This document shows, in pieces, positions 5,465 to 62,798 of a stretch of DNA of 64,000 bases (the first letter of the stretch is position 1; every line of letters begins with the position of its first letter). The notes beneath the pieces were generated by a model, which saw only the letters and a list, made by a program, of their open reading frames with translations, searched no databases and was not told where the DNA came from. A program made the position numbers and the translations under genes. The stretch is from Polyangiales bacterium (GTDB lineage: Bacteria; Myxococcota_A; Polyangia; Polyangiales; Ga0077539), in the NCBI GenBank assembly GCA_044229975.1, contig JBGARZ010000008.1, forward strand, positions 320,001 through 384,000, in the 5' to 3' direction.

Positions 5465-8400
5465 ATGGGTCGAACACGAGCCTGGTCCGTCTTGCTGGCG
5501 GCGGTGCTGCTGGCCGCGTGTAGCGGTAACTCCTCGGTGGTCGGTGGCTTCGACGACGTCTATGTCACGGCCGACGCCTCGACCGACACGAGCCCCGACA
5601 TCGGCGCCCCCGACGTCGCCTTCGACGCCACGATGGACGTCGCCTTCGACGCCGCGATGGACGCGCCGGACGTCCCCCGCGGAGGCTGTCGCGACAACAC
5701 CGACTGCGCCGGCGACGAGCTCGGCAACCGCATCTGCGACGTCGCCGCGGGCCGCTGCGTCGCCTGCACGCCGACCAACCGCGGGTCGTGCGGCAACGGG
5801 CAGTACTGCACCGCCGGCAACCGCTGCGAGGCGGGCTGTAGCGTCGACGGCGACTGCGCCGCGAGCGGCGACGCGGGCGCGCCCGGCGACGGCTCGACGC
5901 CGATGGGTCTGCGCTGCGACGTCGCCCGCCACGCGTGCGTGTCCTGCGTGACCGACGAGCACTGCGCCGTGGGCCAGGTCTGCCAGGCGGGCGCCTGCGT
6001 CGCGGGCTGCAACGAGCGCCGCGGCTGCCCCACCGGCCAGGCGTGCTGCGGCGCGGCCTGCGTCAACGTGCAGGACGACCCGCTCCGCTGCGGCACCTGC
6101 GGAACCGTCTGCCCGGGAGGCAACAACGCCGCCCCGGCCTGCTCGATGGGCGCGTGCACCCGCCGCTGCCTGCCGGGCTTCGCCGACTGCGACGGCGACA
6201 CCACCAACGGCTGCGAGGTCTCGCTGGAGGGTTCGGCCAACTGCGGTGGCTGCGGGCGCGCGTGCACCGGCGCGACGCCGCTCTGCTCGACCACTGCGGG
6301 CGCCTCGCGCTGTGTCTCCGGCTGCGAGGCCGCCCAGACGCGCTGCGGGTCGGTCTGCGCCGACCTCCAGAACGACGCCACCGACTGCGGCCGCTGCGGC
6401 AACGCCTGCCCCGGCGGTGCCAACGCGACGGGTTCGTGCGCGGCGGGCGCGTGCCGCCTCGCTTGCAACACCGGCTTCGCCGACTGCGACGGTGACCCCT
6501 CCAACGGCTGCGAGGCCAACCTCAACACCGGGGCGTCGAGCTGCGGCGCATGCGGAACGGTCTGCCCCTCCGGCGGCAACAGCACGGCCTCGTGCCTCGC
6601 GGGCCGCTGCCGCCTCGCGTGTACCACGGGCTACGCCGACTGCGACGCCAACCCGGTCAACGGGTGCGAGGTCAACGTGCTCACCTCGTCGGGGAGCTGC
6701 GGCACCTGCGGGCGCACCTGCCCGGGCGGCGCCAACGGCTCGGCCACGTGCAGCAACGGCACCTGCCAGCTCGCCTGCAACCCGGGCTTCGGCGATTGCG
6801 ACGGCGACGCCTCCAACGGCTGCGAGCAGGCGCTCGACAACGCCATGCACTGCGGCCGCTGCGCCAACTCCTGCTCCGCCTCGACGCCCGTGTGCGCCGC
6901 CGCGATGGGCGCGAGCGCCACCTGCACCAGCGGCTGCACCGGAGGGCAACAACGCTGCGGTAGCACCTGCGTCGACCCGCAGACCGACCCCGACCACTGC
7001 GGCGACTGCACGACCGTCTGCCGCACGACGCCCAACACCCGCGCGACCTGCGCGCTCGGTCGCTGCGGCACCACCTGCACCCCGGGCTTCGCCGACTGCG
7101 ACGGCGACGCCTCCAACGGCTGCGAGGTCAACACGCAGGTGAGCACGACCCACTGCGGCGCGTGCAACAACACCTGCCGCGCCGGGCAGAACGCCACCGT
7201 CGCCTGCGTGTCGAGCCAGTGCCGCGCCACCTGCAACGTCGGCTACGGCGACTGCGACACGATCGAGCTCAACGGCTGCGAGGCCAACCTGCTCACGGCC
7301 ACCGCGCACTGCGGCGGCTGCGGGCGCGTGTGTCCAGCGGCGCCCAACGCGGTGCCGACGTGCGGCGATGGTCTGTGCGCGTTTCGTTGCGTGACGGGCT
7401 TCGCGGACTGCGACGGTAGCGCCGCCAACGGCTGCGAGGTCTCCCTCGACAGCGCCACCAACTGCGGCGCGTGCGGGCGGGTCTGCGGCGCCGCGACGCC
7501 CCTCTGCTCGACCGCGGGCGCGAGCCCGACGTGCATCTCCGGCTGCGCCACGTCACAGGTCCGCTGCGGCAGCAGCTGCGTCGACCTGCAGAGCGATCCG
7601 ACCAACTGCGGCGCCTGCGGGGCCGCCTGCGCCACCGGGCCCAACGCGACGCGCACCTGCACCACCGGGCGCTGCGGCGTCACCTGCGCGACGGGCTTCG
7701 GCGACTGCGACAACGCGCCCTCCAACGGCTGCGAGGTGGCCTTCGCCGCCGACGACGCCAACTGCGGCGCCTGCGGCCGCGCGTGCCCGTCGACGCAGAC
7801 CTGCGCCGCGGGCGTCTGCCGCGATCGCTGCACCGCGGGGCTCACCTTCTGCGCGAGCTCCTGCGTCAACACGCAGAACGACAACAACCACTGCGGCGCC
7901 TGCGGCACCGCCTGCGGGACGGGGCGCTACTGCCTCGCGGGCGTGTGCCGCTCGGGCAACGTCTCGACGGTGACGTCGGGCAACGACCACGTGTGCGCGA
8001 TTCGCGGATCGGGCACCGTCTGGTGCTGGGGCTACAACGGCTGGGGTCAGCTCGGTAACGGCAACACCACCAGCAGCCTGGTGCTCCAGCAGGTGTCGGG
8101 CATCACCAACGCGGTGGAGGTCGGGGCCTCCGGGGGGAGCTCGTTTGCGCGCCTCGCCGACGGCACGGTCGTGGGCTGGGGCCTGCACTACGGCGCCGGC
8201 GAGCTGGGCGACGGGAGCATGGTCACGCAGCGCCTCGCGCCGGTGCGGGTCGTCGGGCTGACGGACATCGTCGACATCGCGTCGGGCGGCTGGGCGCATA
8301 GCTGCGCGGTCGACGCCACCGGCCGCGTCTGGTGCTGGGGCTGGAACAACTACGCCCAGCTCGGCGACGGCAGCACCGCGAGCCGCGTGGCGCCGGGCCT

Positions 8401-20528: not shown

Positions 20529-23324
20529 ATGCCTTCGCGCGCAGGTCTCGTCGCAGTGGGGTTCGTGTTGCTGGCTTCGTCGGGGTGTGCGGACCCTTCG
20601 AGGTTCGACCTGTCCCCTGACGTCGACACCGACGTGGCCGTCGAAGAGGACGACGCGCTGGTCGTCGGTGACGCCTCCGACCTCGACGCGGGCTCGACCC
20701 TCGACGCGCCCGACGTGCGACGCACGGACCGGGGCTTCATCGACGATGCGCCCCGCAAGGACGTGCCGACCGGCGACCGGGGGCCGATGGTGGACGTTCG
20801 CGTGGACGTGCCCACGACCGACCGCGGCTCCACGACCGACGTCGTCGCGGTGGACGTCTCCCCGATGAACTGCAGCCCTACGACCATCACGGGTGGTCCC
20901 CGCGCCGCGACGGGTTCGACCTCGACCCGCGACTCCCGGTACGAGGGCTCGTGCGGGGGGCGCGGCAGCCCCGAGGCGGCGTTTACGTGGACCGCTCCGA
21001 CGGCGGGCACCTACACCTTCGATACGGTGGGCTCGACCTACGACACCGTGCTCTACGTCCGCGACGGCATGTGCGTCGGGGCGGAGCTCGGGTGCAACGA
21101 CGACGGGGCGGGGATCAACCTGCTCTCTCGCGTCACCGCGAGGCTCGCCGAAGGTCAGATGGTCACCATCTTCGTCGACGGCTACGACGGCGACGACGGG
21201 AGCTTCGTGCTCAACATCTCGAACACCACCGACGCCGGGGTCGTGATCGACGTGCCGCCCGTGGTCGATACGGGCACGGACGTTCCGGCCGTCGACATCT
21301 TCCGGCCCGACGGTGGCCTCGCGCGCAACTGCGCCACCGCCGCCGACTGCAACGACGGCATCGCCTGCACCCTGGACGAGTGCCGGGGTGGCGTGTGCGC
21401 GCGCACCCCGAGCAACTCCCGCTGCGCCACCCGGGAGAACTGCGACGCGCTCCGTGGTTGCGTCGCGGCGCCTGCGTGTTCGACGAGCACGACCTGCGGC
21501 GACCTGGCGTGCCTGGTCGACGGGTTCTGTTCGTCGGTCGCGGTGGGCTGCCGCTACTACGCCCGCGACGATGACTTCGACTACTACCCCCCGCTCGCGT
21601 GCGGCGGCGGCGACTGCGACGACACCAACCGCGCGGTGTACCCGGGCGCCACCGAGCTCTGCGACGGCATCGACAACGACTGCGACGGACTGGTGGACGA
21701 GGCGGGCACGACGCCGTTGTGCCCCGGCGGCACCTGCACCGACGGCCGCTGCGTCTGCGCGGCCTCGGGGCTGTCCCTCTGCAGCGGGCGCTGCATCGAC
21801 ACGATGACCGACATCAACAACTGCGGCCGCTGCGGAAACTACTGCCCGTCGTCGTCCGCGTGCGTGGGCGGAACGTGCGTCTGCGGGACGGGGCGCACGG
21901 CGTGCAGCGGGCGCTGCGTCGACCTGCAGACCGACTACAACAACTGCGGCACCTGCGGAAACTACTGCGACATCAGCTCGACCTGCACCGCCGGGACGTG
22001 CCGCTGCTCGTCGGGGCTCTCGTCCTGCAGCGGGCGCTGCGTCGACCTCCAGACGAGCTTCTCCAACTGCGGCGCGTGCGGCACCACCTGCCGCTCCGAT
22101 CAGGTCTGCCGGGCGGGCGCCTGCTCGTGTCCCACCGGCTCGATGACCTGCGGCGGACGCTGCGTGGACACGACGCGCGACACGGCCAACTGCGGCGCGT
22201 GCGGGACGGTCTGCCCGGCCGCGGGCTTCGGGGCGGCGTGCCTGAGCGGGCGCTGCGGCTGCACGTCGGGCGTGCTGTGCGGCGACGGCGCGGCGGCCCG
22301 CTGCGTGGACACGACGCGCGACACCGCCAACTGCGGCGCGTGCGGGACGGCGTGCTCGGGCTCGCGCGAGTGCGTCTCGGGGCGCTGCGTGTGCCCGACC
22401 GGGCTCACCACCGTGTGCGGCACCACCTGCGTCGACACGGCCACCGACCCCGCCCACTGCGGCGCCTGCGGCCGCGCGTGTCCCGCGCCGGCGGGCGCCG
22501 TCGGCACGTGCGCGGCGGGCGTGTGCGGAACGACATGCGCCCCGGGCCGCGCCGACTGCGACGGCAACGCGGCCAACGGCTGCGAGACCGACGCGACCCT
22601 CAACGGAAACTGCGGCGTGTGCGGGCGCACGTGCACGAGCCCCGCGGCGTGCGTGTCGGGCACGTGCTTCACGTGCGGGACGGCGTCGGTTCCGCGGGTG
22701 CTGATCTACGGGCCGGGGGGGACGGTGTCGCAGCCGTTCTTCCCGCCGGAGTCGGTGGTGACCGTGGCGAGCGACGCGATGTGGCGCTCGCTCACGACCG
22801 CGGACTTCGGCGAGTACGACCTCATCTGGGTCGACGGCAACGCGTGCACCGGTGACGCCACGCAGTTCGATACGCTGCGCGACACGCAGGCCGCCTGGGG
22901 GCCCGCGGTGCGCGGGCGCGCGGTGGTCACTCCCTTCGATGCGGACCTGCACGCCTTCTATGGGGGGTCGACCTCGAGCGCGGCGCGGATGATCGCCAAC
23001 ACCGTCCGCTACCTCGCGGCGATGGGGCACAACGGCGCGGGCGGTCGCACGGGGATGTACCTGTCCTTCGGGTGCGTTCTGGAGGACAGCCCCTCGATCG
23101 TGTCGGTCTACGCCACGACCTTCGGCGCGGGGTTGGCCGCCACCGCGAGCTCCAGCACGCCGGTGCTCACGACCGCGGGCACGGCGCATCCGATGTTCGC
23201 CGGCGCCACGTCGCTGTCGGGCTACTACTGCCACGGCACGACCACGGTGCCCGCCGGGTTCACGTCGCTCATGACCTGCGGCTCAGGCCCGGGCTTGATC
23301 GTGCGCCACGTCGACTGCATGTGA
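20529..23324 (+). CDS. Cys-rich lipoprotein: PPC-like domain, putative metal-binding (MopE-like) motif, Cys repeats, unknown C-terminal domain
   Basis: FDTVGSTYDTVLYVRDG..ELGCNDD; DCDDTNRAVYPGATELCDGIDNDCDGLVDE; CVDxxTDxxNCG repeats. Confidence 0.8.
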   Translation: MPSRAGLVAVGFVLLASSGCADPSRFDLSPDVDTDVAVEEDDALVVGDASDLDAGSTLDAPDVRRTDRGFIDDAPRKDVPTGDRGPMVDVRVDVPTTDRGSTTDVVAVDVSPMNCSPTTITGGPRAATGSTSTRDSRYEGSCGGRGSPEAAFTWTAPTAGTYTFDTVGSTYDTVLYVRDGMCVGAELGCNDDGAGINLLSRVTARLAEGQMVTIFVDGYDGDDGSFVLNISNTTDAGVVIDVPPVVDTGTDVPAVDIFRPDGGLARNCATAADCNDGIACTLDECRGGVCARTPSNSRCATRENCDALRGCVAAPACSTSTTCGDLACLVDGFCSSVAVGCRYYARDDDFDYYPPLACGGGDCDDTNRAVYPGATELCDGIDNDCDGLVDEAGTTPLCPGGTCTDGRCVCAASGLSLCSGRCIDTMTDINNCGRCGNYCPSSSACVGGTCVCGTGRTACSGRCVDLQTDYNNCGTCGNYCDISSTCTAGTCRCSSGLSSCSGRCVDLQTSFSNCGACGTTCRSDQVCRAGACSCPTGSMTCGGRCVDTTRDTANCGACGTVCPAAGFGAACLSGRCGCTSGVLCGDGAAARCVDTTRDTANCGACGTACSGSRECVSGRCVCPTGLTTVCGTTCVDTATDPAHCGACGRACPAPAGAVGTCAAGVCGTTCAPGRADCDGNAANGCETDATLNGNCGVCGRTCTSPAACVSGTCFTCGTASVPRVLIYGPGGTVSQPFFPPESVVTVASDAMWRSLTTADFGEYDLIWVDGNACTGDATQFDTLRDTQAAWGPAVRGRAVVTPFDADLHAFYGGSTSSAARMIANTVRYLAAMGHNGAGGRTGMYLSFGCVLEDSPSIVSVYATTFGAGLAATASSSTPVLTTAGTAHPMFAGATSLSGYYCHGTTTVPAGFTSLMTCGSGPGLIVRHVDCM

Positions 23325-40044: not shown

Positions 40045-40365
40045 GCGGTAGGGGCCATCTCTCTGAAGGTCGCCGCGTCCGCTGGCAGACCGGGGTTGGT
40101 CGCGTCCCGCGCCTGCACCGCCGGGCAAGCGAAAGCCCACGCGATGTGCATCACGCCCATCGGGCGCCCGTGCCGCAGGTTGAAACCCTTTCGTTTCTAC
40201 ACATCGGTGACGCCCGCTTCGGAGCGCCCACTGCGCGGTTGCGGACGGCCCGCGAGCGGGCCTGCAACCGCTGAAGTGGGAGCCTGGAGCTGGGCGTCCC
40301 GCCGTCGCGGGACTTCCTGCGTGAGCGTCGGTCGCTGGAGCGACCGTCGAGAGGGTGAAGGAGTT
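40045..40365 (+). ncRNA. Candidate structured non-coding element, copy A (uninterrupted)
   Basis: Many hairpins; inverted diverged copy with compensatory changes. Confidence 0.5.
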
Positions 40366-40614
40366 CCTCTCCAAGCCGTTCAGCAAGTTCCTACCTCCAC
40401 TCGTCGAGCGCAGCGCGCTCGGCGCTCCGCCAGCAAGTCCCGCGGCGGCGGGACGCTTAGCTCCAGGCTCCCACTTCAGCGGTTGCAGGCCCGCTCGCGG
40501 GCCGTCCGCAACCGCGTAGTGGGCGCTCCGAAGCGGGCGTCACCGATGTGTAGAAACGATAGGGTTTCAACCTGCGGCACGGGCACCCGACGGGTCTGAT
40601 GCACATCGCGTGGG

Positions 40615-42539
40615 ATCGGCATAGGGGCGGCCCCTCCGTGAGGAGGAGCCGACCCCTGCCACACCACCGGACAAGCGGGTCCGCATCCGGCGGTTCGGAC
40701 GGTTGAGGTCACCTCCGTAGCCTCCACAACCCGAGGCTGTCGAACCAACTGGGTCGGAGCGTGAAGCCCAGGCGGAGCGCGCGGCGCCACCAGCCACCGG
40801 CCGAGGCCACCGACTTCCAGCTTGCTTCGTCCCCTTGTCCAAGGGCGCGCAGCGACTGGTAGATCGTGATGCCTCGCTTCCAGTGCTTCAGTTGCACCAT
40901 CCGAAGGCGACGGCGAATCCACTCGTCCAGCCCCTCGAAGAGCTTCGTCTGCTGCGTGAGGCGGTAGTACGCCCACCACCCACGCAGGTACCGATTCAGC
41001 CTCTCGATCAGTTGCACCAGACTGCGACCCGCCGTCCGGCTCGTGAGCTCCCGCACACGCGCCTTGAACGCCTCTTGCGACTTCGCCGACACCCCTCGCT
41101 TCACTTCTCCGCCGTGCGCGTAGAACTGAAAGCCCAGGAACTTCCGTCCCTTGACCGGCGCCACCGCGCTCTTGGACTCGTTGACCCGGAGGTGCAGCGA
41201 CGCGAAGCGCTCCCGCAGGAATGCCATCACTCGCTCGCCCGCCCGCTCCGACCTCACGTACACGTTGAGGTCGTCGGCGTAGCGCACGAACGCGTGACCG
41301 CGCTGCTCCAACTCCTTGTCCACTTCGTCCAGAAGCACGTTCGCCAGCAGTGGTGACAGCGGGCCGCCTTGCGGCGTTCCCTCCGTCCGCGCCGTCGCGA
41401 TCCCGTCGGCCATCATCCCGGCCTCCAGGTAGCGACGGATGAGCCTCAGCAGGCGCTTGTCCTCGATGCGTTTGGCCAACCGGCCCATCAGCACGTCGTG
41501 GTTCACGCGGTCGAAGAACGCTTCGAGGTCCACGTCCACCACCACCCCGCGCCCCTCCTGGACGTAGCGCTGTGCGACGACAATCGCGTCGTGCGCGCTG
41601 CGCCCCGGGCGGAACCCGTAGCTGTGCTGTGAGAAGGTCGGATCGAATCGAGGCTGAAGCACCTGGAGGATCGCCTGTTGGAGGAGACGATCCAGGGCCG
41701 TCGGGATGCCGAGAGTCCTCGTGCCGCCCGACGCCTTGGGGATCTCGCACGATCTCACCGGCTGCGGTTGGTAGCGCCCCGCGAGGAGGTCCTCGCGCAG
41801 ACGCGGCCAGTGCACACGCAGGTGGGCCGCGAGATCCTTCGTCTCCATCCCGTCCACTCCGGGGCTGCCCCGGTTGCTCTGCACCCGCTGGAGCGCCCGC
41901 AAGAGGTTGTCCCTTCCGAGGACCGCCTCCAGCAAGGCGCTGGTGCCCGAGTGCTCGTCTCCTTTCGTCGCCGTGGGGTCTTCCTCGCGGGGCTGCGCGT
42001 TGAGGGCTTCACCCTCGTCGCGCCTCCCTCGCCCCGGTGGTGTCCCGGGCATCTGAGGCGGTTCCCTTTTGAGACTCATGGTCGATGCACCCTCCCTTCC
42101 GTTTGGTCCTTTGCGCGGCCGTCGGCCCTTCGTCGTGGCGTTCCCCGTCGTGTCTCCGACGTCGTTGGCGACGTCGGCGCGGGAGCCCAGGCTTTCGGAC
42201 GCGCTACTACGACCTCTGCTGACTTCCTGCGCCGCACGTTGGTGTGTGTCGCCCTTTCAGGCGTGAAGCAGGATCTCCCCGGGTAAGAAACGCTGGCTTT
42301 CACGGCGCAACCGCCCGATCTACCGCACGGTCTCTTGGTCATTGGAGCTTCGCGGCTCCTTGCCCGCTCGCCCCAGACCGCACGGCCTCACATCGGCTTT
42401 CTGTCCGTCGGCTCGCCGTTTCGCGTCGGGCTTCCTTCAGACAGTCCGTTGCCTCGCTGCCCTTGCCTCTCGCGTGGATCGTCATGACCTACTTTCCCGG
42501 GGACTTGCACCCCGAAGCCAACGCCCATGCCGGGCGCAC
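40615..42539 (-). mobile_element. Group II intron, class IIC
   Basis: 5' GTGCGCCCGGCATGGGCG; domain V GAACCGCCGGATGCGGACCCGCTTGTCCGGTGGTGT; 3' ...CCTATGCCGAT; inserted directly after a hairpin ending in TTT. Confidence 0.92.
40709..42079 (-). CDS. ltrA: Group II intron reverse transcriptase/maturase (no endonuclease domain)
   Basis: GSPGVDG, RTLGIPT, SYGFRPGRS, GTPQGGPLSPLLAN and RYADD motifs; X domain LNRYLRGW. Confidence 0.95.
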   Translation of the reverse strand: MSLKREPPQMPGTPPGRGRRDEGEALNAQPREEDPTATKGDEHSGTSALLEAVLGRDNLLRALQRVQSNRGSPGVDGMETKDLAAHLRVHWPRLREDLLAGRYQPQPVRSCEIPKASGGTRTLGIPTALDRLLQQAILQVLQPRFDPTFSQHSYGFRPGRSAHDAIVVAQRYVQEGRGVVVDVDLEAFFDRVNHDVLMGRLAKRIEDKRLLRLIRRYLEAGMMADGIATARTEGTPQGGPLSPLLANVLLDEVDKELEQRGHAFVRYADDLNVYVRSERAGERVMAFLRERFASLHLRVNESKSAVAPVKGRKFLGFQFYAHGGEVKRGVSAKSQEAFKARVRELTSRTAGRSLVQLIERLNRYLRGWWAYYRLTQQTKLFEGLDEWIRRRLRMVQLKHWKRGITIYQSLRALGQGDEASWKSVASAGGWWRRALRLGFTLRPSWFDSLGLWRLRR

Positions 42540-42646
42540 AAAGCAGGCGCCCCTTCGGGGCTTCCAGAAACGATCAGCCAACCCACTGTGCCGGCTTCGT
42601 GATGAACAAAGCGCCCTTCCGAAAGCCCCGGAGGGGCGCCCGCTTT
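42540..42646. repeat. REPIN/MITE-like hairpin with 30-bp inverted arms
   Basis: 42540-42569 pairs with 42617-42646; each arm has an internal GCCCC..GGGGC hairpin; absent from copy A. Confidence 0.8.
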
Positions 42647-42728
42647 CGCTTGCCCGGCGGTGCAGGCGCGGGACGCGACCAACCCCGGTCTGCCAGCGGA
42701 CGCATCGACCTCCAGAGAGGTATGGCCC

Positions 42729-43298
42729 CTACCGCTGTAGCCGAACCGGAACCCCCCGGCTGGCTGGCGGGCGCGTCACGGTGTTGCCGGGCTTGAGCGT
42801 CACGACCACGTCGACCCAACCGCCTGTCGGGGTCGGGCGCACCACGCGCAGATCGAACGCCGCCGGGTCGTTGACCTGCACCGCGGGGTTCACCACCGCG
42901 TCGAGCGTGTGGTGGTTGTCGTCCTTGCCCGAGATCACGTAGACGTCCTCGCGACCGTTGCGCTGCTCAGCGTCCGCGCGCAGTGACAGAAACCCGTTGC
43001 CCGCACCGCCGCCCCCCGACGTCGGCCAGTAGCAGGTGATCTCGGCCTGGAGCACCTCGGGGTCACGCTCCAGCGCCGTCCCCACCGCAGGCGATGCGGG
43101 CACCGTCCCCTGGATGCGCGCCACCAATCCGCCGTTGCGCACCTCCTCGCAGCGCGCGCCCGCTGTGACAGCAAGCGACTGCACCTGCGACAGGTGACGA
43201 TCGACCGTCGGTCGCAGCGCCGCCGGAACGCGCCGACACCCGACGACCACCACGAGCCCGAGCGAGAGCATGCGCCATGCGTGCGGAGAGGTTCCCAT
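42729..43298 (-). CDS. Hypothetical lipoprotein
   Basis: VVVGC lipobox; its TAG stop lies inside the GTAG end of element copy B. Confidence 0.55.
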   Translation of the reverse strand: MGTSPHAWRMLSLGLVVVVGCRRVPAALRPTVDRHLSQVQSLAVTAGARCEEVRNGGLVARIQGTVPASPAVGTALERDPEVLQAEITCYWPTSGGGGAGNGFLSLRADAEQRNGREDVYVISGKDDNHHTLDAVVNPAVQVNDPAAFDLRVVRPTPTGGWVDVVVTLKPGNTVTRPPASRGVPVRLQR

Positions 43299-44037: not shown

Positions 44038-45351
44038 CTACGTGAACATCCCCAGGAAGGGCGCGGCCATCAACGGCGCAGCGGGGAGCCAGAGCACGGC
44101 GAGCCCGAAGGTCGCCGCGGTGGTCTCGCAGTCCGCGAGCGAGCGAGTCCACCCCGCCGCATCGACCGGCAGCACCACCGCGTCGCGAAACGCCACCGCG
44201 TCGCGAAACGCCGCCGTCGCGAGGGTGGGCGCGCCGACCACGACGACCGCGCCCGTGTGGCCAACGAGCGCCTCGGGCAGGCGCACGATCTCGCCGTCGG
44301 CGCAGTACACGCTGCCGTCACGCGCGATGCCCGGACGCATCGGGAGTGACCTCCACGCATCGAGCGCGCGGCGGGTGCGCGAGCGGGTCCAGAGCGCGAC
44401 GGTGAGGGCGAGGGCGGCGCCGACGATCCACTCCCACGGCGGGGCGACGAAGAGCAGGTGGCGGGGAGAGCCCTTGAGTCCGATGACGGAGCTGCCGACG
44501 GAGATGAAGAGCTGCTCGTGGTAGCGCGGCGCTTCGAAGAGGGCGCCCGAGAACCTGCGCAAGGGCTGGCAGTAGAGATGGACCCGCTCGGCGCAACCGT
44601 GGCGGACGTGCGAGCGACCGGGGAATCCCGTGATGCAGCGATTGCCCTCGCGCCGCTGCTCGATGCCAGGCCCTCCGGGTGTGCTGGCGATGAACAACCC
44701 GGGGGTGTCGCGCGACGGCTCGAAGACGGCGACCGCGTGGCGATAGTCGCGCAGCCCTTCCTCGACGGAGTGGGTCGCGGTCCGCCACGTCGATGCGGCC
44801 AGCGCGACCACGACGACGGCCATCGACGCGCGGAAGGCGAGGGTCGTCGCGCGCGGTGACCACGGGGCAGAGGTCAGCGAGGTGCGCGCCACCTCGATGG
44901 TCGTCGGCAGCACGAAGAGCATGAAGAAGGACGAGCAGGTGAGGATGCTGATGCCGAGCGAGCCGCCAGCGTCGCCGTCGGAGTCGACGCGGCAGCCCAG
45001 GGGCCACGCCAGGACGAGCCACGGCGACAGCCACCACAGGGCCCGGTAGAGCGACTGCACAGCACCTGGATCGAGCCGACGACGCAGCGACAGCATGAGC
45101 GGAAGGAAGCCGCAGCACGCGCCGATGGCCGCGAGCGGATAGAGCAGCGCGGCGCCCTCGCGAGTCGACAGGACACTACTCGCGACCGCGACCACCCACG
45201 TCAGCACGAACAAGAACGGCGTCAGCCAGTGCACCCAGAACCCACCGCGCTTTGGAGGCACACCGTGGCGGGAGAGCGCGAACGCGTCGGGCGCGGGGAT
45301 CCACGGCGGCGGTCGGAGCGGGCGTCGCGTGGGTGGGTCGTCGCTCGCCAT
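44038..45351 (-). CDS. Hypothetical multi-pass membrane protein
   Basis: Several TM segments. Confidence 0.6.
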   Translation of the reverse strand: MASDDPPTRRPLRPPPWIPAPDAFALSRHGVPPKRGGFWVHWLTPFLFVLTWVVAVASSVLSTREGAALLYPLAAIGACCGFLPLMLSLRRRLDPGAVQSLYRALWWLSPWLVLAWPLGCRVDSDGDAGGSLGISILTCSSFFMLFVLPTTIEVARTSLTSAPWSPRATTLAFRASMAVVVVALAASTWRTATHSVEEGLRDYRHAVAVFEPSRDTPGLFIASTPGGPGIEQRREGNRCITGFPGRSHVRHGCAERVHLYCQPLRRFSGALFEAPRYHEQLFISVGSSVIGLKGSPRHLLFVAPPWEWIVGAALALTVALWTRSRTRRALDAWRSLPMRPGIARDGSVYCADGEIVRLPEALVGHTGAVVVVGAPTLATAAFRDAVAFRDAVVLPVDAAGWTRSLADCETTAATFGLAVLWLPAAPLMAAPFLGMFT

Positions 45352-45511
45352 CGGGGCGATGGTAACGCGTTCGTCCGATGGTGAGCCGAAGCGCGCGCGG
45401 GTGTTGGCGAGCGGGCAATCGGAACGTAGGCGTCGCGTCCCTTCGGGTAAGTCCGCGTTGAGGAGGCGTGAGTGGGCGCTCGCCGATCGTCCGGTGATAC
45501 CGTCGTCCCCG

Positions 45512-48055
45512 ATGCGCTACTCCATCCTCGCCCTCGTCGTCCTCGCGAGCGTCGCCTGCTCGACCGGCAACTCCGTCGTGGGTGGCCCCACCGACAGCGC
45601 CGTCACCGACATCGCCGAGCTCGATCGCGGCACCCTCGACGCCCCCGCCCTCGACGCCCCCGCGCTCGACGTCCCCGCGCTCGATGTCGCGCTCGATGTC
45701 GTGCTCGACGCCCCCGTCGACGCGCCCTTCCGCTGCACCACCAACGCCGACTGCGCGGGCAACACCGCCGGGTCGGTCTGCGACGTCACCACTGGTGCCT
45801 GCGTGCAGTGCGTGGCGTCCGCCGACACCTGTCCCACCGGGCAGTACTGCGTCACCGCGTCCAACACCTGCGCCGCCGGGTGCCGCGACGACGACGCCTG
45901 CGCCGCCGTCTCCACCGACGGCGGTACCTCCTCCGCCACGCCCCGCTGCAACGTCGCCACGCGTGCGTGTGTCGCCTGCGTCACCGACGACCACTGCCCC
46001 GCGGGCAACCTCTGCGTCGGCAACCTCTGCGTCGTCGGCTGCAACGCGACGCGCGCCTGCCCCACGGGCCAGACCTGCTGCTCCGGCGGGTGCGTCGACA
46101 CCCAGTCCAACACCGCCGCCTGCGGCGCCTGCGACGCCCGCTGCATGGCCCCCAACTCCGTGCCCGCGTGCCTCAACGGCATGTGCACCGTCGGCACCTG
46201 CACGGCCCCCTTCGCCGACTGCAACGGCTCCGTCTCCGACGGCTGCGAGACCAACACCCAGTCCGACGTCGACCACTGCGGGAGCTGCCCCGCCCGCTGC
46301 GCCGCGCACCCCAACACCATCGCCCGCTGCGCCGCCGGGACCTGCGCCTACGAGTGCATCACCGGCTTCGCCGACTGCGACAGCGACATGTCCAACGGCT
46401 GCGAGGTCGACACCCGCACCGACACCTCCCACTGCGGCCGCTGCGGCGGCGCGTGCTCGCTCGCCAACGCCACGGCCGCCTGCACCGCGGGCGCCTGCAC
46501 CATCGCTACGTGCACGACCGGCTTCGGAGACTGCGACGGCAACGCCCCCAACGGGTGCGAGACCGACACCCGCACCAGCGTCTCCCACTGCGGCGCGTGC
46601 GCCAACGCCTGCCCCGGCGCGCCCAACGCCGTCGCCGCGTGCGCCACCGGGACGTGCGCCCTCACCTGCACCGCGGGCTTCGCCGAGTGCGACGGCAACG
46701 CCACCAACGGCTGCGAGGTCGACACCCGCACCAGCGCCACCCACTGCGGCGGCTGCGGGCGCACCTGCATGCTCGCCAACGCCACCGCGAGCTGCTCCGG
46801 GTCGCTCTGCGCCGTCGCCTCGTGCGCGCCCGGCTTCGGTGACTGCGACGGGACGGCGAGCAACGGCTGCGAGGTCGACACCCGCACCACGGTTACCCAC
46901 TGCGGAACCTGCAACAACACCTGCTCCTTCCCCAACGCGGCGGCGATCTGCGCGTCGGGCGCCTGCGCGCTCGGGACATGCAACGCGGGCTACAGCAACT
47001 GCGACGGCGTCGCCGCCAACGGCTGCGAGGTCGACACGCGCACCGACGTCACCCACTGCGGGTCGTGCAGCCGCGCGTGCGCGGTGGTCAACGGAACGCC
47101 CGGGTGCGCCGCGGGCGACTGCACCGTCGCGGCCTGCAACACCGGCTACGCCAACTGCGACGCGATGGTCGCCACCGGCTGCGAGGTCGACACCCGCGTC
47201 AGCACTGCCCACTGCGGCGGCTGCGGCATGGCCTGCGGCGCGGGGTACACCTGTGAGGCGTCGGCGTGTGTTCCGGCGACGGGGTGCGCGGCGATCCATG
47301 CGCGCTCCCCGACGCTGCCGAGCGGGGTGTATCGGCTCGACCCCGACGGCGCGGGCGGCGCGGCGGCCTTCGACGCGTACTGCGACATGACCACCGACGG
47401 CGGCGGCTGGACCCTCGTCGCCACCGTCTACAACACCCCCACGACAGACGTCCGCCGCTGGAACACCGACGCCGTCTTCAGCGATGGCAGCACCTTCGGG
47501 AGCCTCGCGGCGCGCGACACCGACGACTACAAGAGCGCCGGCTACGCGACGGTGCGGGCCAACGACCTCCTGGTGCTGACCGACGAGTACCACTTCGGGT
47601 TTCGCTCGCTGCTCGGCACCACGGCCCTCGGCCCCTACGTGGGCTCGCGGGTGACGTCGATGTGCGCGCAGAGCTGGATCCGTTCGGGGGTCGACTTCGC
47701 GTCGTCCAACCTCAGCGCCACCCAGCGGCAGGGGCTCGGCTTCGTGGTGCGCGGCCTCGACTTCAACGGCGGCGGCCCCTCCAACGCCTGCGCCACCACC
47801 GGCACCAACGAGAACAACTTCCTCAGCTTCGCGTCAGGCCCCTCGTGGTGGCTCTTCGGCGTCGGCAACTGCGTGAGCTGCGCCAGCGACTGGACCACCT
47901 ACGACAACGGCATGCTCAACCTCGCCACGCTCACCTTCGCCGCGTGCTCGGCGGGCGCGTGGCCCTGCAACGGCAACTCTCTCTACTGGTCCAACGCCGC
48001 GTACCCCTCCAGCACCGCGACCAAGACCCGCTACGTGCAGCTCCTGGTGCGCTGA
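45512..48055 (+). CDS. Cys-rich repeat lipoprotein with C-terminal fibrinogen-like domain
   Basis: Lipobox SVAC; GFADCDG..NGCEVDTRT repeats; SGVYRLDPDG..YCDMTTDGGGWTLV. Confidence 0.88.
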   Translation: MRYSILALVVLASVACSTGNSVVGGPTDSAVTDIAELDRGTLDAPALDAPALDVPALDVALDVVLDAPVDAPFRCTTNADCAGNTAGSVCDVTTGACVQCVASADTCPTGQYCVTASNTCAAGCRDDDACAAVSTDGGTSSATPRCNVATRACVACVTDDHCPAGNLCVGNLCVVGCNATRACPTGQTCCSGGCVDTQSNTAACGACDARCMAPNSVPACLNGMCTVGTCTAPFADCNGSVSDGCETNTQSDVDHCGSCPARCAAHPNTIARCAAGTCAYECITGFADCDSDMSNGCEVDTRTDTSHCGRCGGACSLANATAACTAGACTIATCTTGFGDCDGNAPNGCETDTRTSVSHCGACANACPGAPNAVAACATGTCALTCTAGFAECDGNATNGCEVDTRTSATHCGGCGRTCMLANATASCSGSLCAVASCAPGFGDCDGTASNGCEVDTRTTVTHCGTCNNTCSFPNAAAICASGACALGTCNAGYSNCDGVAANGCEVDTRTDVTHCGSCSRACAVVNGTPGCAAGDCTVAACNTGYANCDAMVATGCEVDTRVSTAHCGGCGMACGAGYTCEASACVPATGCAAIHARSPTLPSGVYRLDPDGAGGAAAFDAYCDMTTDGGGWTLVATVYNTPTTDVRRWNTDAVFSDGSTFGSLAARDTDDYKSAGYATVRANDLLVLTDEYHFGFRSLLGTTALGPYVGSRVTSMCAQSWIRSGVDFASSNLSATQRQGLGFVVRGLDFNGGGPSNACATTGTNENNFLSFASGPSWWLFGVGNCVSCASDWTTYDNGMLNLATLTFAACSAGAWPCNGNSLYWSNAAYPSSTATKTRYVQLLVR

Positions 48056-48056
48056 C

Positions 48057-49988
48057 TCACCCCAGCGCCTCGCCCTCGTCCGACCACGCGCTGCACCACG
48101 CGTCCGTCGCCTGCGCGTGCTCCAACAGGCCCTTGTAGTACCGGTGACGCGCCATCAGCCCGCCGTCACCCAGCACCAGCAGCCAGCGCTTCGCCCGCGT
48201 GAGCGCGACGTTCATCCGCCGCACGTCGCGCAGGAAGCCGATCTCCCCCTCGTCGTTGCTGCGCACCAGGTCGACCACCATCACCAGCTTCTCGCGGCCC
48301 TGGAAGCCGTCGACGCTGCTCACCTCCAGGCCCTCGTCGAGCAGGTCCGTCGCGCGATCACGGATCTCCCTCACCTGCGCCTGGTACGGCGTGATGACCC
48401 CGATGTCCGTCGGCGAGATCCCGCGCGACACCAGCCGTCGCACCTCGGCCACCGCGCGCTCCGCGTTGCCCGGGTTGCGCGTGCTCGGGTCTTCGCCCTC
48501 CCGAACCTCCTCCCACCCACGCCCCACCGCGTCGAGCAGCACGAAGGGCCCCGGTCGCGCCGGGTCTTCCCTCGCTCCGACGTCACTCAGCAACGCGTGC
48601 GCGACCCACGGCGCGGCCCGCAGCTCACCGCCGTACGTAGCAGCGTTGGGGTACGCCATCAGCGCCTCGTGCATCCGGTGCTGCACCCGCAGCAGCGTCA
48701 CCAGCGAGCGTGAGTGAGGACCCGCCGCGAGGCGCTCGAAGAAGGTCTCGGCGAGCCCGAGCTTCTCGGCCTCCTCACCGATGACCGTCGGCGGGAGCTG
48801 GTGCGGATCACCCGCGAGCACCGCGATGGGCGCGTGCTGTAGCGCGACGAGCGCGATGGGGTCGGGCGCCTGCGTCGCCTCGTCGAGCACCACGCGGTCG
48901 AAGCGAAGGCTCGCGATCTGCCACGACTCTGATCCGGCGGCGGTGACGGCGATGACCTCCGCGCCGTCGAGGATGCCCGCCTGCGCGTCGCGGGTCGCCC
49001 GGCGTGCGCTCGCGAAGAGGCCGCCCACCTCGGCCCGAACATCACGGCGCTCCTGGCCAGTGGCCGCGTTGCGCTTCTCGCGCTGACGGAGGCGCTGGCG
49101 GAGGGACTCGGCCTCGCGGATCCAGTCGCGCGCGAGGCGCGAGGCGTCGCTCGCTTCGAGGAGCGCGTCGAGGGTGTGCGCTTCCATCTCTGGAGAGACG
49201 CGCGCGGGGTGGCCGATGCGCACGAGACGAACGCCCGCGAGCACGAGCCGCTCGGCGAGGTTGTCGACGGCGGTGTGGCTGGCGGCGGTGACCAGCACCC
49301 GCTCACCCCGCGCCACGGCCTGCCGAACGATCTCCGCGAGGGTGCGGGTCTTGCCGGTTCCGGGTGGGCCGAGGACGAGGGAGAGGTCGCGGCCGAGGGC
49401 GCGCTGCACGGCGGTGCGCTGGTCGTCTTCGAGCGCGTCGTCGAACCACTCGGTGACGGCCACGGCCGACTCATTGGGCGGCGGAGGAGAGACGCCGAAG
49501 AGGACGTTGAGGTGCTGCCACGCGACGCTGCCGGGGGTCTCGGCGGCGGCGGCGTCGAGGGCAGCGCGGCCGCGGTTGTAGGTGACGTCGGAGGCTTCGG
49601 CGTCGAGGCGCCAGCCAGGTTCCCAGAGGTCGTCGGCGTCGGAGTCGGCGATCATCACGCCGACGCGGTCGGGGCTGCGGCGAGCCATCACGCCGCGGAT
49701 GGCGCCGGGCTCGTCGGGCTGCGCGCGCCACAGGATGACGGGGTCGCCGGGGCCGAGGCGCAGGTCGCGGAGGTTGGCGCCGCGCTCGGGGCGAAACCAC
49801 AGGAGCAGGCGCTCACCGGGCGCGGGGAGGGCTTCATCGAGGGAGAGGTTGCGCAGCGCGAGGCGGGCCTCGACGCGGTCGGCGATGGTGGTCGAAGCGC
49901 GCTCGGCGGCGAAGCGTTCGCGGACGGCGTCGCGCTCGGCGGACCACGCGCGTTGCAGACGGGAGAGGTGGGAGGAGAGGTCGCTCAC
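48057..49988 (-). CDS. IGHMBP2/UPF1-like SF1 helicase
   Basis: GPPGTGKT, DEATQ, GDPHQLPP, QHRM, SVDGFQGRE and NVALTRA motifs. Confidence 0.92.
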   Translation of the reverse strand: MSDLSSHLSRLQRAWSAERDAVRERFAAERASTTIADRVEARLALRNLSLDEALPAPGERLLLWFRPERGANLRDLRLGPGDPVILWRAQPDEPGAIRGVMARRSPDRVGVMIADSDADDLWEPGWRLDAEASDVTYNRGRAALDAAAAETPGSVAWQHLNVLFGVSPPPPNESAVAVTEWFDDALEDDQRTAVQRALGRDLSLVLGPPGTGKTRTLAEIVRQAVARGERVLVTAASHTAVDNLAERLVLAGVRLVRIGHPARVSPEMEAHTLDALLEASDASRLARDWIREAESLRQRLRQREKRNAATGQERRDVRAEVGGLFASARRATRDAQAGILDGAEVIAVTAAGSESWQIASLRFDRVVLDEATQAPDPIALVALQHAPIAVLAGDPHQLPPTVIGEEAEKLGLAETFFERLAAGPHSRSLVTLLRVQHRMHEALMAYPNAATYGGELRAAPWVAHALLSDVGAREDPARPGPFVLLDAVGRGWEEVREGEDPSTRNPGNAERAVAEVRRLVSRGISPTDIGVITPYQAQVREIRDRATDLLDEGLEVSSVDGFQGREKLVMVVDLVRSNDEGEIGFLRDVRRMNVALTRAKRWLLVLGDGGLMARHRYYKGLLEHAQATDAWCSAWSDEGEALG

Positions 49989-50021
49989 GGCGTGCGCAGG
50001 GTAGCGCGAGGCAGTGGGTGC

Positions 50022-50194
50022 GGGGCGCTACTCGTCGGACGAGTGAGCGCGCGAGACGGCTCCGGGGCGTCACTCGTCGGACGAGTGAGCGCGCCAGACG
50101 GCTCCAGGGCGCTACTCGTCGGAAGAGTGGGCTCCCGGGACGCCTCGGGGGCGCTACTCGTCGGACGAGTGAGCACGCCAGACGGCTCCGGGGC
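50022..50194. repeat. Four tandem 42-bp repeats, each with a palindromic core
   Basis: Units at 50022, 50064, 50106 and 50148; core ACTCGTCGGACGAGT. Confidence 0.9.
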
Positions 50195-50328
50195 CTTCCT
50201 CCGACGACCGCCCACGCCCGCGGCGGCCGATCGGCGCGAGGCAGGGACGGCTTCTTCGGGAGCTTCGGGGAGGGCATCATGACGCCGATGATCGTCCGAA
50301 GCGCCTGACCCGTCGTATCGTCGGCGCC

Positions 50329-53044: not shown

Positions 53045-53202
53045 CATCGCTCACGCCCTCCCAATGCGCCCTCACCCGAAGCGAAGCGGAGGGGCGCGAC
53101 GCTCACCTTTTCAGTCACCTTCTGGAGCGCGCTCGGATACCCAACAGTCGCGCCCCTCCGCTTCGCTCCGGGTGAGGGCGCATTGGGGTGACGTGAGCGA
53201 TG
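53045..53202. repeat. REPIN-like inverted repeat (56-bp arms)
   Basis: 53045-53100 pairs with 53147-53202. Confidence 0.9.
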
Positions 53203-55485: not shown

Positions 55486-55672
55486 ACCTCACCCCCCAAC
55501 CCCCTCTCCGTGGACCCTCGCTGCGCTCGGGCTCGGCCGGAGAGGGGGAGCCAAGAGGGATGCTGACTGTCACCCATCACCCGAACAGGGATGTTCACTG
55601 CCTCCGGCTCCCCCTCTCCGGCCGAGCCCGAGCGCAGCGAGGGTCCACGGAGAGGGGGCTGGGGGGTGAGGT
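55486..55672. repeat. REPIN-like inverted repeat (67-bp arms)
   Basis: 55486-55552 pairs with 55606-55672 (1 mismatch); CCCCTCTCC..GGAGAGGGG internal hairpin. Confidence 0.92.

Positions 55673-62725: not shown

Positions 62726-62798
<73 letters not shown>

Follow-up and report, generated by a model that had tools for sequence, protein, structure and literature searches.

Several described systems couple a transposase to dispersed palindromic repeats. In the system formed by REPINs (doublets of repetitive extragenic palindromic, REP, sequences) and the REP-associated tyrosine transposase (RAYT, or TnpA-REP), an inverted doublet is copied, the single-copy transposase gene is flanked by its own repeat family, and REPINs are found inserted into REPINs (Bertels & Rainey 2011, PMC3116915). 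In TIRtrons the gene for a Y1 transposase (TIRYT) lies between long inverted repeats that are unrelated to GTAG REPs, and some of these repeats are self-complementary and present as dispersed dimers (Di Nocera 2013, PMC3733652). A classification of the TnpA-Y1 proteins assigned 26 examples of TIRYTs to the subclasses 2.1, 2.2 and 2.5, and its subclass 1.2 comprises proteins of about 135-150 aa with a Y---Q--HH motif, low copy number and divergent paralogs, tabulated as REP 'no' and as occurring mainly in Cyanobacteria and Bacteroidetes (Quentin 2018, PMC6006769). IS200 Group 3 has been described as unduplicated and flanked by abundant 16-mers (Bertels 2017, 10.1101/119735). Here we describe a locus at 40045-42735 of a 64,000-nt stretch of contig JBGARZ010000008.1 of a Polyangiales bacterium (the window, to which all plain coordinates refer), in which two segments of 320 bases mirror each other and most likely represent mobile DNA, not a new gene for an RNA. 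The locus is probably a stack of three insertions, namely a gene-less palindrome of a repeat family that we call fam1, a likely MITE (a miniature transposable element with inverted repeats) with IS1380-like ends and a body of a second family, fam2, and a group IIC intron, the palindromes likely being copied as single-stranded DNA (ssDNA) by Y1 enzymes acting in trans.

This system works like REPIN/RAYT and is built like a TIRtron, but it fails both comparisons on the GTAG foot and the protein class. In contrast to REPINs, there is no GTAG or GTGG foot, the doublets are about 300 bp long and present in about 12 copies instead of hundreds, and the protein is IS200-like (Y---Q--HH) and not of the class 2 Y---NP type of the RAYTs. 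Compared with TIRtrons, the motif of the proteins is that of subclass 1.2, and hairpin stacks of about 95-135 bp make up the arms. The assignment to subclass 1.2 is a motif match and not a result of the hidden Markov models of the classification, and, unlike the tabulated members, the genes seen here lie between long repeats that also occur as dispersed doublets, and they come from relatives of Myxococcales-labelled metagenome-assembled genomes. Subclass 1.1 of IS200/IS605 has multiple near-identical copies and short asymmetric subterminal hairpins, whereas in this genome there is one copy per lineage and the arms are long and symmetric. IS200 Group 3 with its flanking 16-mers may be the same thing as the system described here. 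We found no published description of subclass 1.2 arms with dispersed doublets, for which supplements may list such flanks, and the available main text of a preprint (10.64898/2026.10.21.760802) had no occurrence of IS200, Myxococc or palindrom. Each ingredient has a published analogue.

The inverted pair claimed by the sequence-only reading of the window is real. Among the 325 inverted pairs returned by a window-wide search, the two longest were the arms 40136-40335/40415-40614 (200 nt, 92% identity) and 40059-40136/42642-42719 (78 nt, 96% identity); the hairpin variants named in that reading were present where it had placed them and both outer ends begin with GCGGTAGGGGCC. The proposed unit, a single element of about 320 nt, was wrong, and the feature is not a non-coding RNA (ncRNA) on present evidence. 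The 2-kb gap within the pair consists of a group IIC intron, which the sequence-only reading had left unidentified, and the remainder of another palindrome, and the left segment (copy A) is a mosaic. In BLAST searches of the host genome (about 10 Mb, 71% GC) it fell apart into modules that are distributed separately.

The layers can be followed along the coordinates. At 40045-40135 (plus strand) a fam1 arm is represented by its outer half, mirrored outer flank included, and this piece ends with the left copy of a 4-bp duplication (40132-40135). Next comes a MITE-like insert of 479 bp (40136-40614), whose terminal repeats at 40136-40154 and 40596-40614 match at 18/19 nt. Within it, a left (40173-40221, plus strand) and a right (40529-40577, minus strand) copy of a GGTTGAAACCC palindrome module enclose a 307-bp inverted doublet of fam2 (40222-40528), which consists of two three-hairpin arms of about 130 bp and a conserved spacer; the 11-mer of the module has 23 copies in the genome, some of them without fam2. 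The intron (40615-42539, minus strand, 1925 nt) encodes a reverse transcriptase/maturase of 456 aa (40709-42079, minus strand), and it is followed by the remainder of the fam1 palindrome at 42540-42735 (minus strand), comprising the right copy of the 4-bp duplication (42540-42543), the inner hairpin of the split arm, the spacer, the intact second arm and the outer flank. In this arrangement the fam1 palindrome would have arrived first, and the DDE-ended insert would have entered a fam1 arm in a second step with duplication of 4 bp. The intron would have come last, since it lies between the right end of the insert and the second copy of the duplication.

The GTAG end, which had been said to recall the REPs handled by HUH/RAYT transposases, is no feature of the family and turned out to belong to the host. 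The 12-mer at this end occurs 3 times in 10 Mb, and on the right side GCG-GTAG (42729-42735, minus strand) is the last codon and the TAG stop of a neighbouring 189-aa gene (open reading frame, ORF, at 42729-43298), mirrored at 40045-40051. An ortholog of this gene in a related genome (G003) stops at the equivalent place and is then followed by different sequence. The link to RAYTs was lost as well, given that GTAG is a host stop codon and that the cognate proteins are IS200-like. From the mirrored GTAG flank at copy A, a single locus, it would seem that the flank of one arm was copied to extend the other. Mirrored outer flanks were found at many other loci, with flank sequences that differ between loci, and these too are likely to have originated from one arm copied off the other.

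The genome contains 28 fam2 arms, and every one of them (28/28) belongs to an inverted pair. Twelve of the pairs are gene-less doublets (301-339 bp), another encloses a Y1 gene, and a diverged one encloses an ORF of 249 aa. Both arm types are represented once in every gene-less doublet (12/12), 10/12 have clearly homologous spacers, and 9/12 are exactly 307 bp long. Given that all 12 have both arm types and that 10 share a homologous spacer, the doublet is a copied unit. The asymmetry between left and right arms is fixed in the gene-less doublets and absent from the transposase-flanking pair. If the doublets were dead relics left by internal deletions of whole transposase-bearing elements, with no mobilisation of the gene-less form, one would expect their arms to equal the transposase flanks, which they do exactly; the diverged pair around an unrelated ORF and the fact that no movement was seen also fit this explanation. 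We nevertheless regard it as unlikely, because independent deletions would not yield the shared spacer, the constant length and the fixed arm asymmetry, and because a single cognate fam2 Y1 gene was found per genome. Matches to fam2 were present in 8/8 congeners and, weakly, in 2/32 other genomes. For an alignment of the arms, 60 arms were collected (28 from this genome and 32 from other loci) and 4 with unrelated 5' parts were dropped; TGAA was kept in 54 of the remaining 56 and is unpaired in the fold, and the GTAG/GTGG foot was absent from the 56-arm consensus. The diverged pair (G000:C2:174720-175934, L100:594-1340) encloses an ORF without Pfam match, a possible passenger gene.

The fam2 arms also flank a transposase gene in this genome. 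P0001, a 136-aa HUH protein (G000:C23:67385-68128), is bracketed by fam2 arms (135 bp, 97%), matches Pfam Y1_Tnp at 87.7 bits and NCBIfam IS200 at 76.5 bits (cut-off 55), and carries the HuH and Y---Q--HH motifs, the Y---Q being invariant in 14/14 aligned proteins. Orthologs of P0001 (65-71% identity) lie between fam2 arms in 4/8 congeners, and Y1 genes of another lineage are flanked by fam1 arms in two genomes (G001:C223 and G007:C794). In a midpoint-rooted tree of 14 proteins, the 5 fam2-flanked proteins made up a clade of their own (99/99), and so did the 2 fam1-flanked proteins (100/99). These clades show arm-enzyme pairing and not co-evolution, because kin share traits. Flanking inverted repeats were found at 18/23 Y1 loci from relatives, where the misses were weak, partial or contig-end matches, and at 7/12 non-self Y1 loci of a 151-genome phylum sample, compared with 0/150 control ORFs; 3/5 of the contig matches in the phylum tally duplicated proteins already counted (L035, L038, L040) and were not recounted. 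P0001 has three paralogs in this genome, at 35-37% identity to it or present in one copy each, with one gene copy per lineage, and the Y1 proteins are short and have no match to a C-terminal helix-turn-helix. One option raised by the sequence-only reading, a non-autonomous ssDNA element handled by an HUH transposase, is supported by these arms flanking Y1/HUH genes. Each Y1 lineage may recognise its own stacked DNA hairpins and move the whole doublet in the fashion of a REPIN.

Other Y1 genes were noted in the course of this comparison. Three in this genome (G000:C23:54594-54932, C34:47434-47775 and C26:71082-71276) each lie between their own dispersed repeat family: two have Y---Q--HH and arms of 94-104 bp with tens of arm matches each, and the third, divergent gene lies between inverted tandem arrays of a unit of about 54 bp. 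Another genome (G002) has three close Y1 copies of another lineage. An Abditibacteriota genome (L118) has a 43%-identical Y1 gene with an upstream doublet that contains fam2-like CTGAAGT and GCCCGCC hairpin motifs, and TGAA-like motifs were also present in several arms of the phylum sample.

Insertion sequences (IS) that target REPs at a fixed position in the palindrome, with a short duplication, have been described, the families named in the available text being IS3, IS110, IS4, IS256 and IS5, with no mention there of IS1380 (Tobes & Pareja 2006, PMC1525189). The insert at 40136-40614 resembles these in its mode of insertion and differs in that its non-autonomous form has a Y1-type doublet as its body. 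It has no ORF of its own, is bounded by a target duplication, and shares its 19-nt terminal repeat with a 2.2-kb element encoding a DDE transposase (G000:C39:198698-200917, L088), which has 26-bp perfect ends and is inserted into an arm that belongs to a different Y1 repeat family. The ORF of this element is frameshifted at a homopolymer in the present assembly and has 230 homologs, two of which match PF13701 below cut-off. In the IS1380 family the ends start with CC and a duplication of 4-5 bp is made; the ends of both the window insert and the C39 element start with CC, with a 4-bp duplication that is exact in the window; these two alone would also fit 5 bp, and matching ends in another genome (G004) favour a length of 4. 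We use the label 'IS1380-like' only, because the best family match, to IS1380, is far below cut-off.

The terminal 18-mer occurred 5 times at 3 loci in this genome and was present in 7/31 family genomes. The outer flanks of terminal-repeat ends matched Y1-gene flanks in 17/28 distinct cases, compared with 14/500 controls; of the 11 misses, 8 came from two genomes whose Y1 flanks were outside the comparison library and one was the intron end at this locus. Judged by eye, a distance of 9-10 nt separated most ends from the foot of the first hairpin, behind which they lay. In G004 all terminal-repeat ends (7/7) led into a fam2 arm, one of them truncated, in broken contigs. The gene-less insert had one complete and one partial copy (C32) in this genome, and a complete copy of 344 bp with another body was found in G019. 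The position of the DDE ends 9-10 nt behind the hairpins of Y1 repeats, with fam2 as cargo, is new here, and we found no published description of an IS1380-like repeat-targeting MITE. It is likely that the DDE transposase reads this same foot of the hairpin, its insertion falling 9-10 nt behind.

These observations bear on the idea that the DDE transposase, or else recombination and fold-back copying between repeats, is the main means by which the doublets spread, with the Y1 gene as nothing but a source of sequence. The presence of fam2 within DDE-type ends here and at the 7 ends in G004, the outer flanks mirrored at many loci and the lack of a cognate fam1 Y1 gene among the matches in this genome are all in its favour. 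Since 11/12 gene-less fam2 doublets have no DDE ends and the arm families track the Y1 clades, we consider it improbable and prefer copying of the doublets by the Y1 enzymes.

The compensatory changes that had suggested an RNA are also real. Of the 30 consensus pairs of the arm alignment 27 were scored, 3 in a gappy apical stem being dropped, and 13 of the 27 showed two or more Watson-Crick types, compared with a mean of 5.3 and a maximum of 10 in 1000 replicates of a tree simulation devised for this analysis as the null. As 13 pairs exceed this maximum, the covariation of the arms is real; one pair that covaries between the two mirrored segments is a fixed difference between arm types in a doublet that was copied as a whole. 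The non-Watson-Crick cells among 1512 were G·T in 4, A·C in 5 and other in 24, counts in which independence is overstated as the arms are related (a point against our interpretation), and in a control of 85 tRNAs of this genome G·T made up 156/1847 stem pairs (8.4%). The near-absence of wobble on either strand fits hairpins formed or repaired in DNA and favours DNA over RNA, although recent homogenisation could be another cause of the low G·T. The compensatory changes are likely to come from selection or repair acting on DNA hairpins. The whole 479-bp insert folds as one long DNA hairpin (z -34.7).

If the arms were instead a structured ncRNA, for example a transposase-associated or regulatory one under selection for RNA structure, covariation above the null would be expected, and gene-adjacent arms would be transcribed by read-through. 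A listing of 16 sequencing runs contained none of RNA, which weighs neither for nor against expression. Copy A is indeed structured, folding better than 100/100 shuffles on both strands, and its fold is better on the GTAG-first strand (z -3.7 against -2.8), the strand favoured in the sequence-only reading. This preference does not extend to the consensus arm, for which the opposite strand gives a fold of slightly higher stability (-53.4 against -47.3). The two long-range helices that had been proposed join unrelated modules and are upstream of only 2/24 doublet arms, both at this locus. The arms always occur as inverted pairs that can pair with each other, and the proposed unit is a mosaic whose ends match IS-type terminal repeats, an outcome that the sequence-only reading itself had named as refuting. 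As had been stated, no known RNA matches the feature: Rfam 15 gave no match on 40045-40614 up to E 10, and its matches in the window, at the gathering threshold and at E<=10, were limited to the intron and a tRNA. Taken with the rarity of wobble, this makes an ncRNA very unlikely, and mobile DNA is the better description of the arms. Repeats of this kind can be mistaken for ncRNAs that covary; the features that discriminate are the absence of wobble, the obligatory inverted pairing and the Y1 flanks.

Group IIC introns have a CGC triad in domain V (Toor 2006, PMC1702495), encode only a reverse transcriptase/maturase and insert after a stem-loop followed by T's or after other inverted repeats (PMC1702495; Waldern 2020, PMC7306698). 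The intron at 40615-42539 (Rfam group-II-D1D4-3, 105.7 bits) has a GUGYG start, the CGC triad, the maturase ORF and a stem-loop with T's upstream. Its protein matches TIGR04416 at 417.9 bits (cut-off 300) and Pfam RVT_1 and GIIM, with no other domain. The genome has 5 full copies at 99.95-100% identity and 6 contig-end fragments. All located 5' ends (8/8) follow a fam1 hairpin and TTT, occupying 8/23 such sites; these introns thus use one dispersed repeat family, in contrast to the varied terminators of other group IIC introns. At the 3' side 7/8 continue into fam1 and the window copy continues into something else. That near-identical copies occupy 8 sites implies movement in recent times, and the intron probably uses the hairpin-plus-TTT as a terminator-like target. 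Related introns (L151, L156, L157) were seen in relatives: the copy in G007 also follows a fam1-like hairpin, and the copy in G005 is in a different context, which we take to resemble an IS66 gene junction.

Multi-copy introns and palindromes could also be joined wrongly by an assembler, and the nesting would then be an artefact. The intron does break contigs at 6 ends, and no contig spanned the locus in read assemblies of 4/16 sequencing runs; read-assembly joints that skip the insert had short sides, probably came from other fam1 loci and were not used. An artefact is nevertheless extremely improbable given that the arms have diverged by about 8% and show compensatory changes, that the 4-bp duplication is exact, and that the junction of fam1 to the terminal repeat recurs at G000:C32:8682-8950 (L126), where the interior is a different repeat family, and in G008 (L127).

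Several observations weigh against a stack of three insertions with mobilisation by Y1 enzymes, the missing spanning contig among them. Movement of the doublets was not observed, and we infer Y1 mobilisation. A search for an orthologous site that is empty and includes both neighbour genes found none: an ortholog of the right neighbour was present in only 1/5 genomes, and at the orthologs of the left neighbour in four genomes nothing matched the remainder of the region, which left no clean empty site. For fam2 neither a sharp common outer boundary nor a cleavage site was identified. A flanking repeat was not seen at 5/12 Y1 loci of the phylum sample, none of the 4 Y1 matches of this genome has fam1 arms, and two genomes rich in fam2 matches, G002 (88% complete) and G005 (64% complete), had no fam2-flanked Y1 gene among the matches. 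With regard to the DDE layer, the larger piece of the frameshifted gene matched the IS1380 profile NF033539 with E 3e-6 and 26 bits, compared with a cut-off of 180. G004 had no match to the DDE protein despite having the ends, and the terminal repeat was not shown at 7 loci of DDE homologs (about 40-75% identity).

The window contains further repeats and genes outside this locus. Intergenic-looking palindromes were found at 55486-55672 and 53045-53202 (67-nt arms, 99%; 56-nt arms, 93%), five to six tandem units of 42 nt at 49974-50225, large cysteine-rich repeat proteins with periods of 52 aa and 41 aa at 45329-48055, 6000-7900 and 21750-22500, and a tRNA gene at 62726-62798.

We tentatively propose, as a possibility that we rate somewhat below even, that Y1 enzymes of subclass 1.2 operate a so far undescribed system similar to REPINs, with long wobble-free DNA hairpin doublets, one family per lineage, and a conserved unpaired TGAA as a candidate guide or cleavage motif, and that these hairpins are also read by an uncharacterised IS1380-like DDE family, which inserts at a distance of 9-10 nt behind them, its MITEs taking the doublets as cargo. 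If this is true, two unrelated chemistries (ssDNA HUH and DDE) could each move one and the same gene-less palindrome, and the DDE enzyme would insert at a fixed position under the guidance of structure. The findings point to a DDE family with hairpin-guided insertion at a fixed position, and they provide a Y1 subclass that was published without a substrate with a concrete candidate, a 136-aa protein and a 130-nt arm, the function of which is directly testable.

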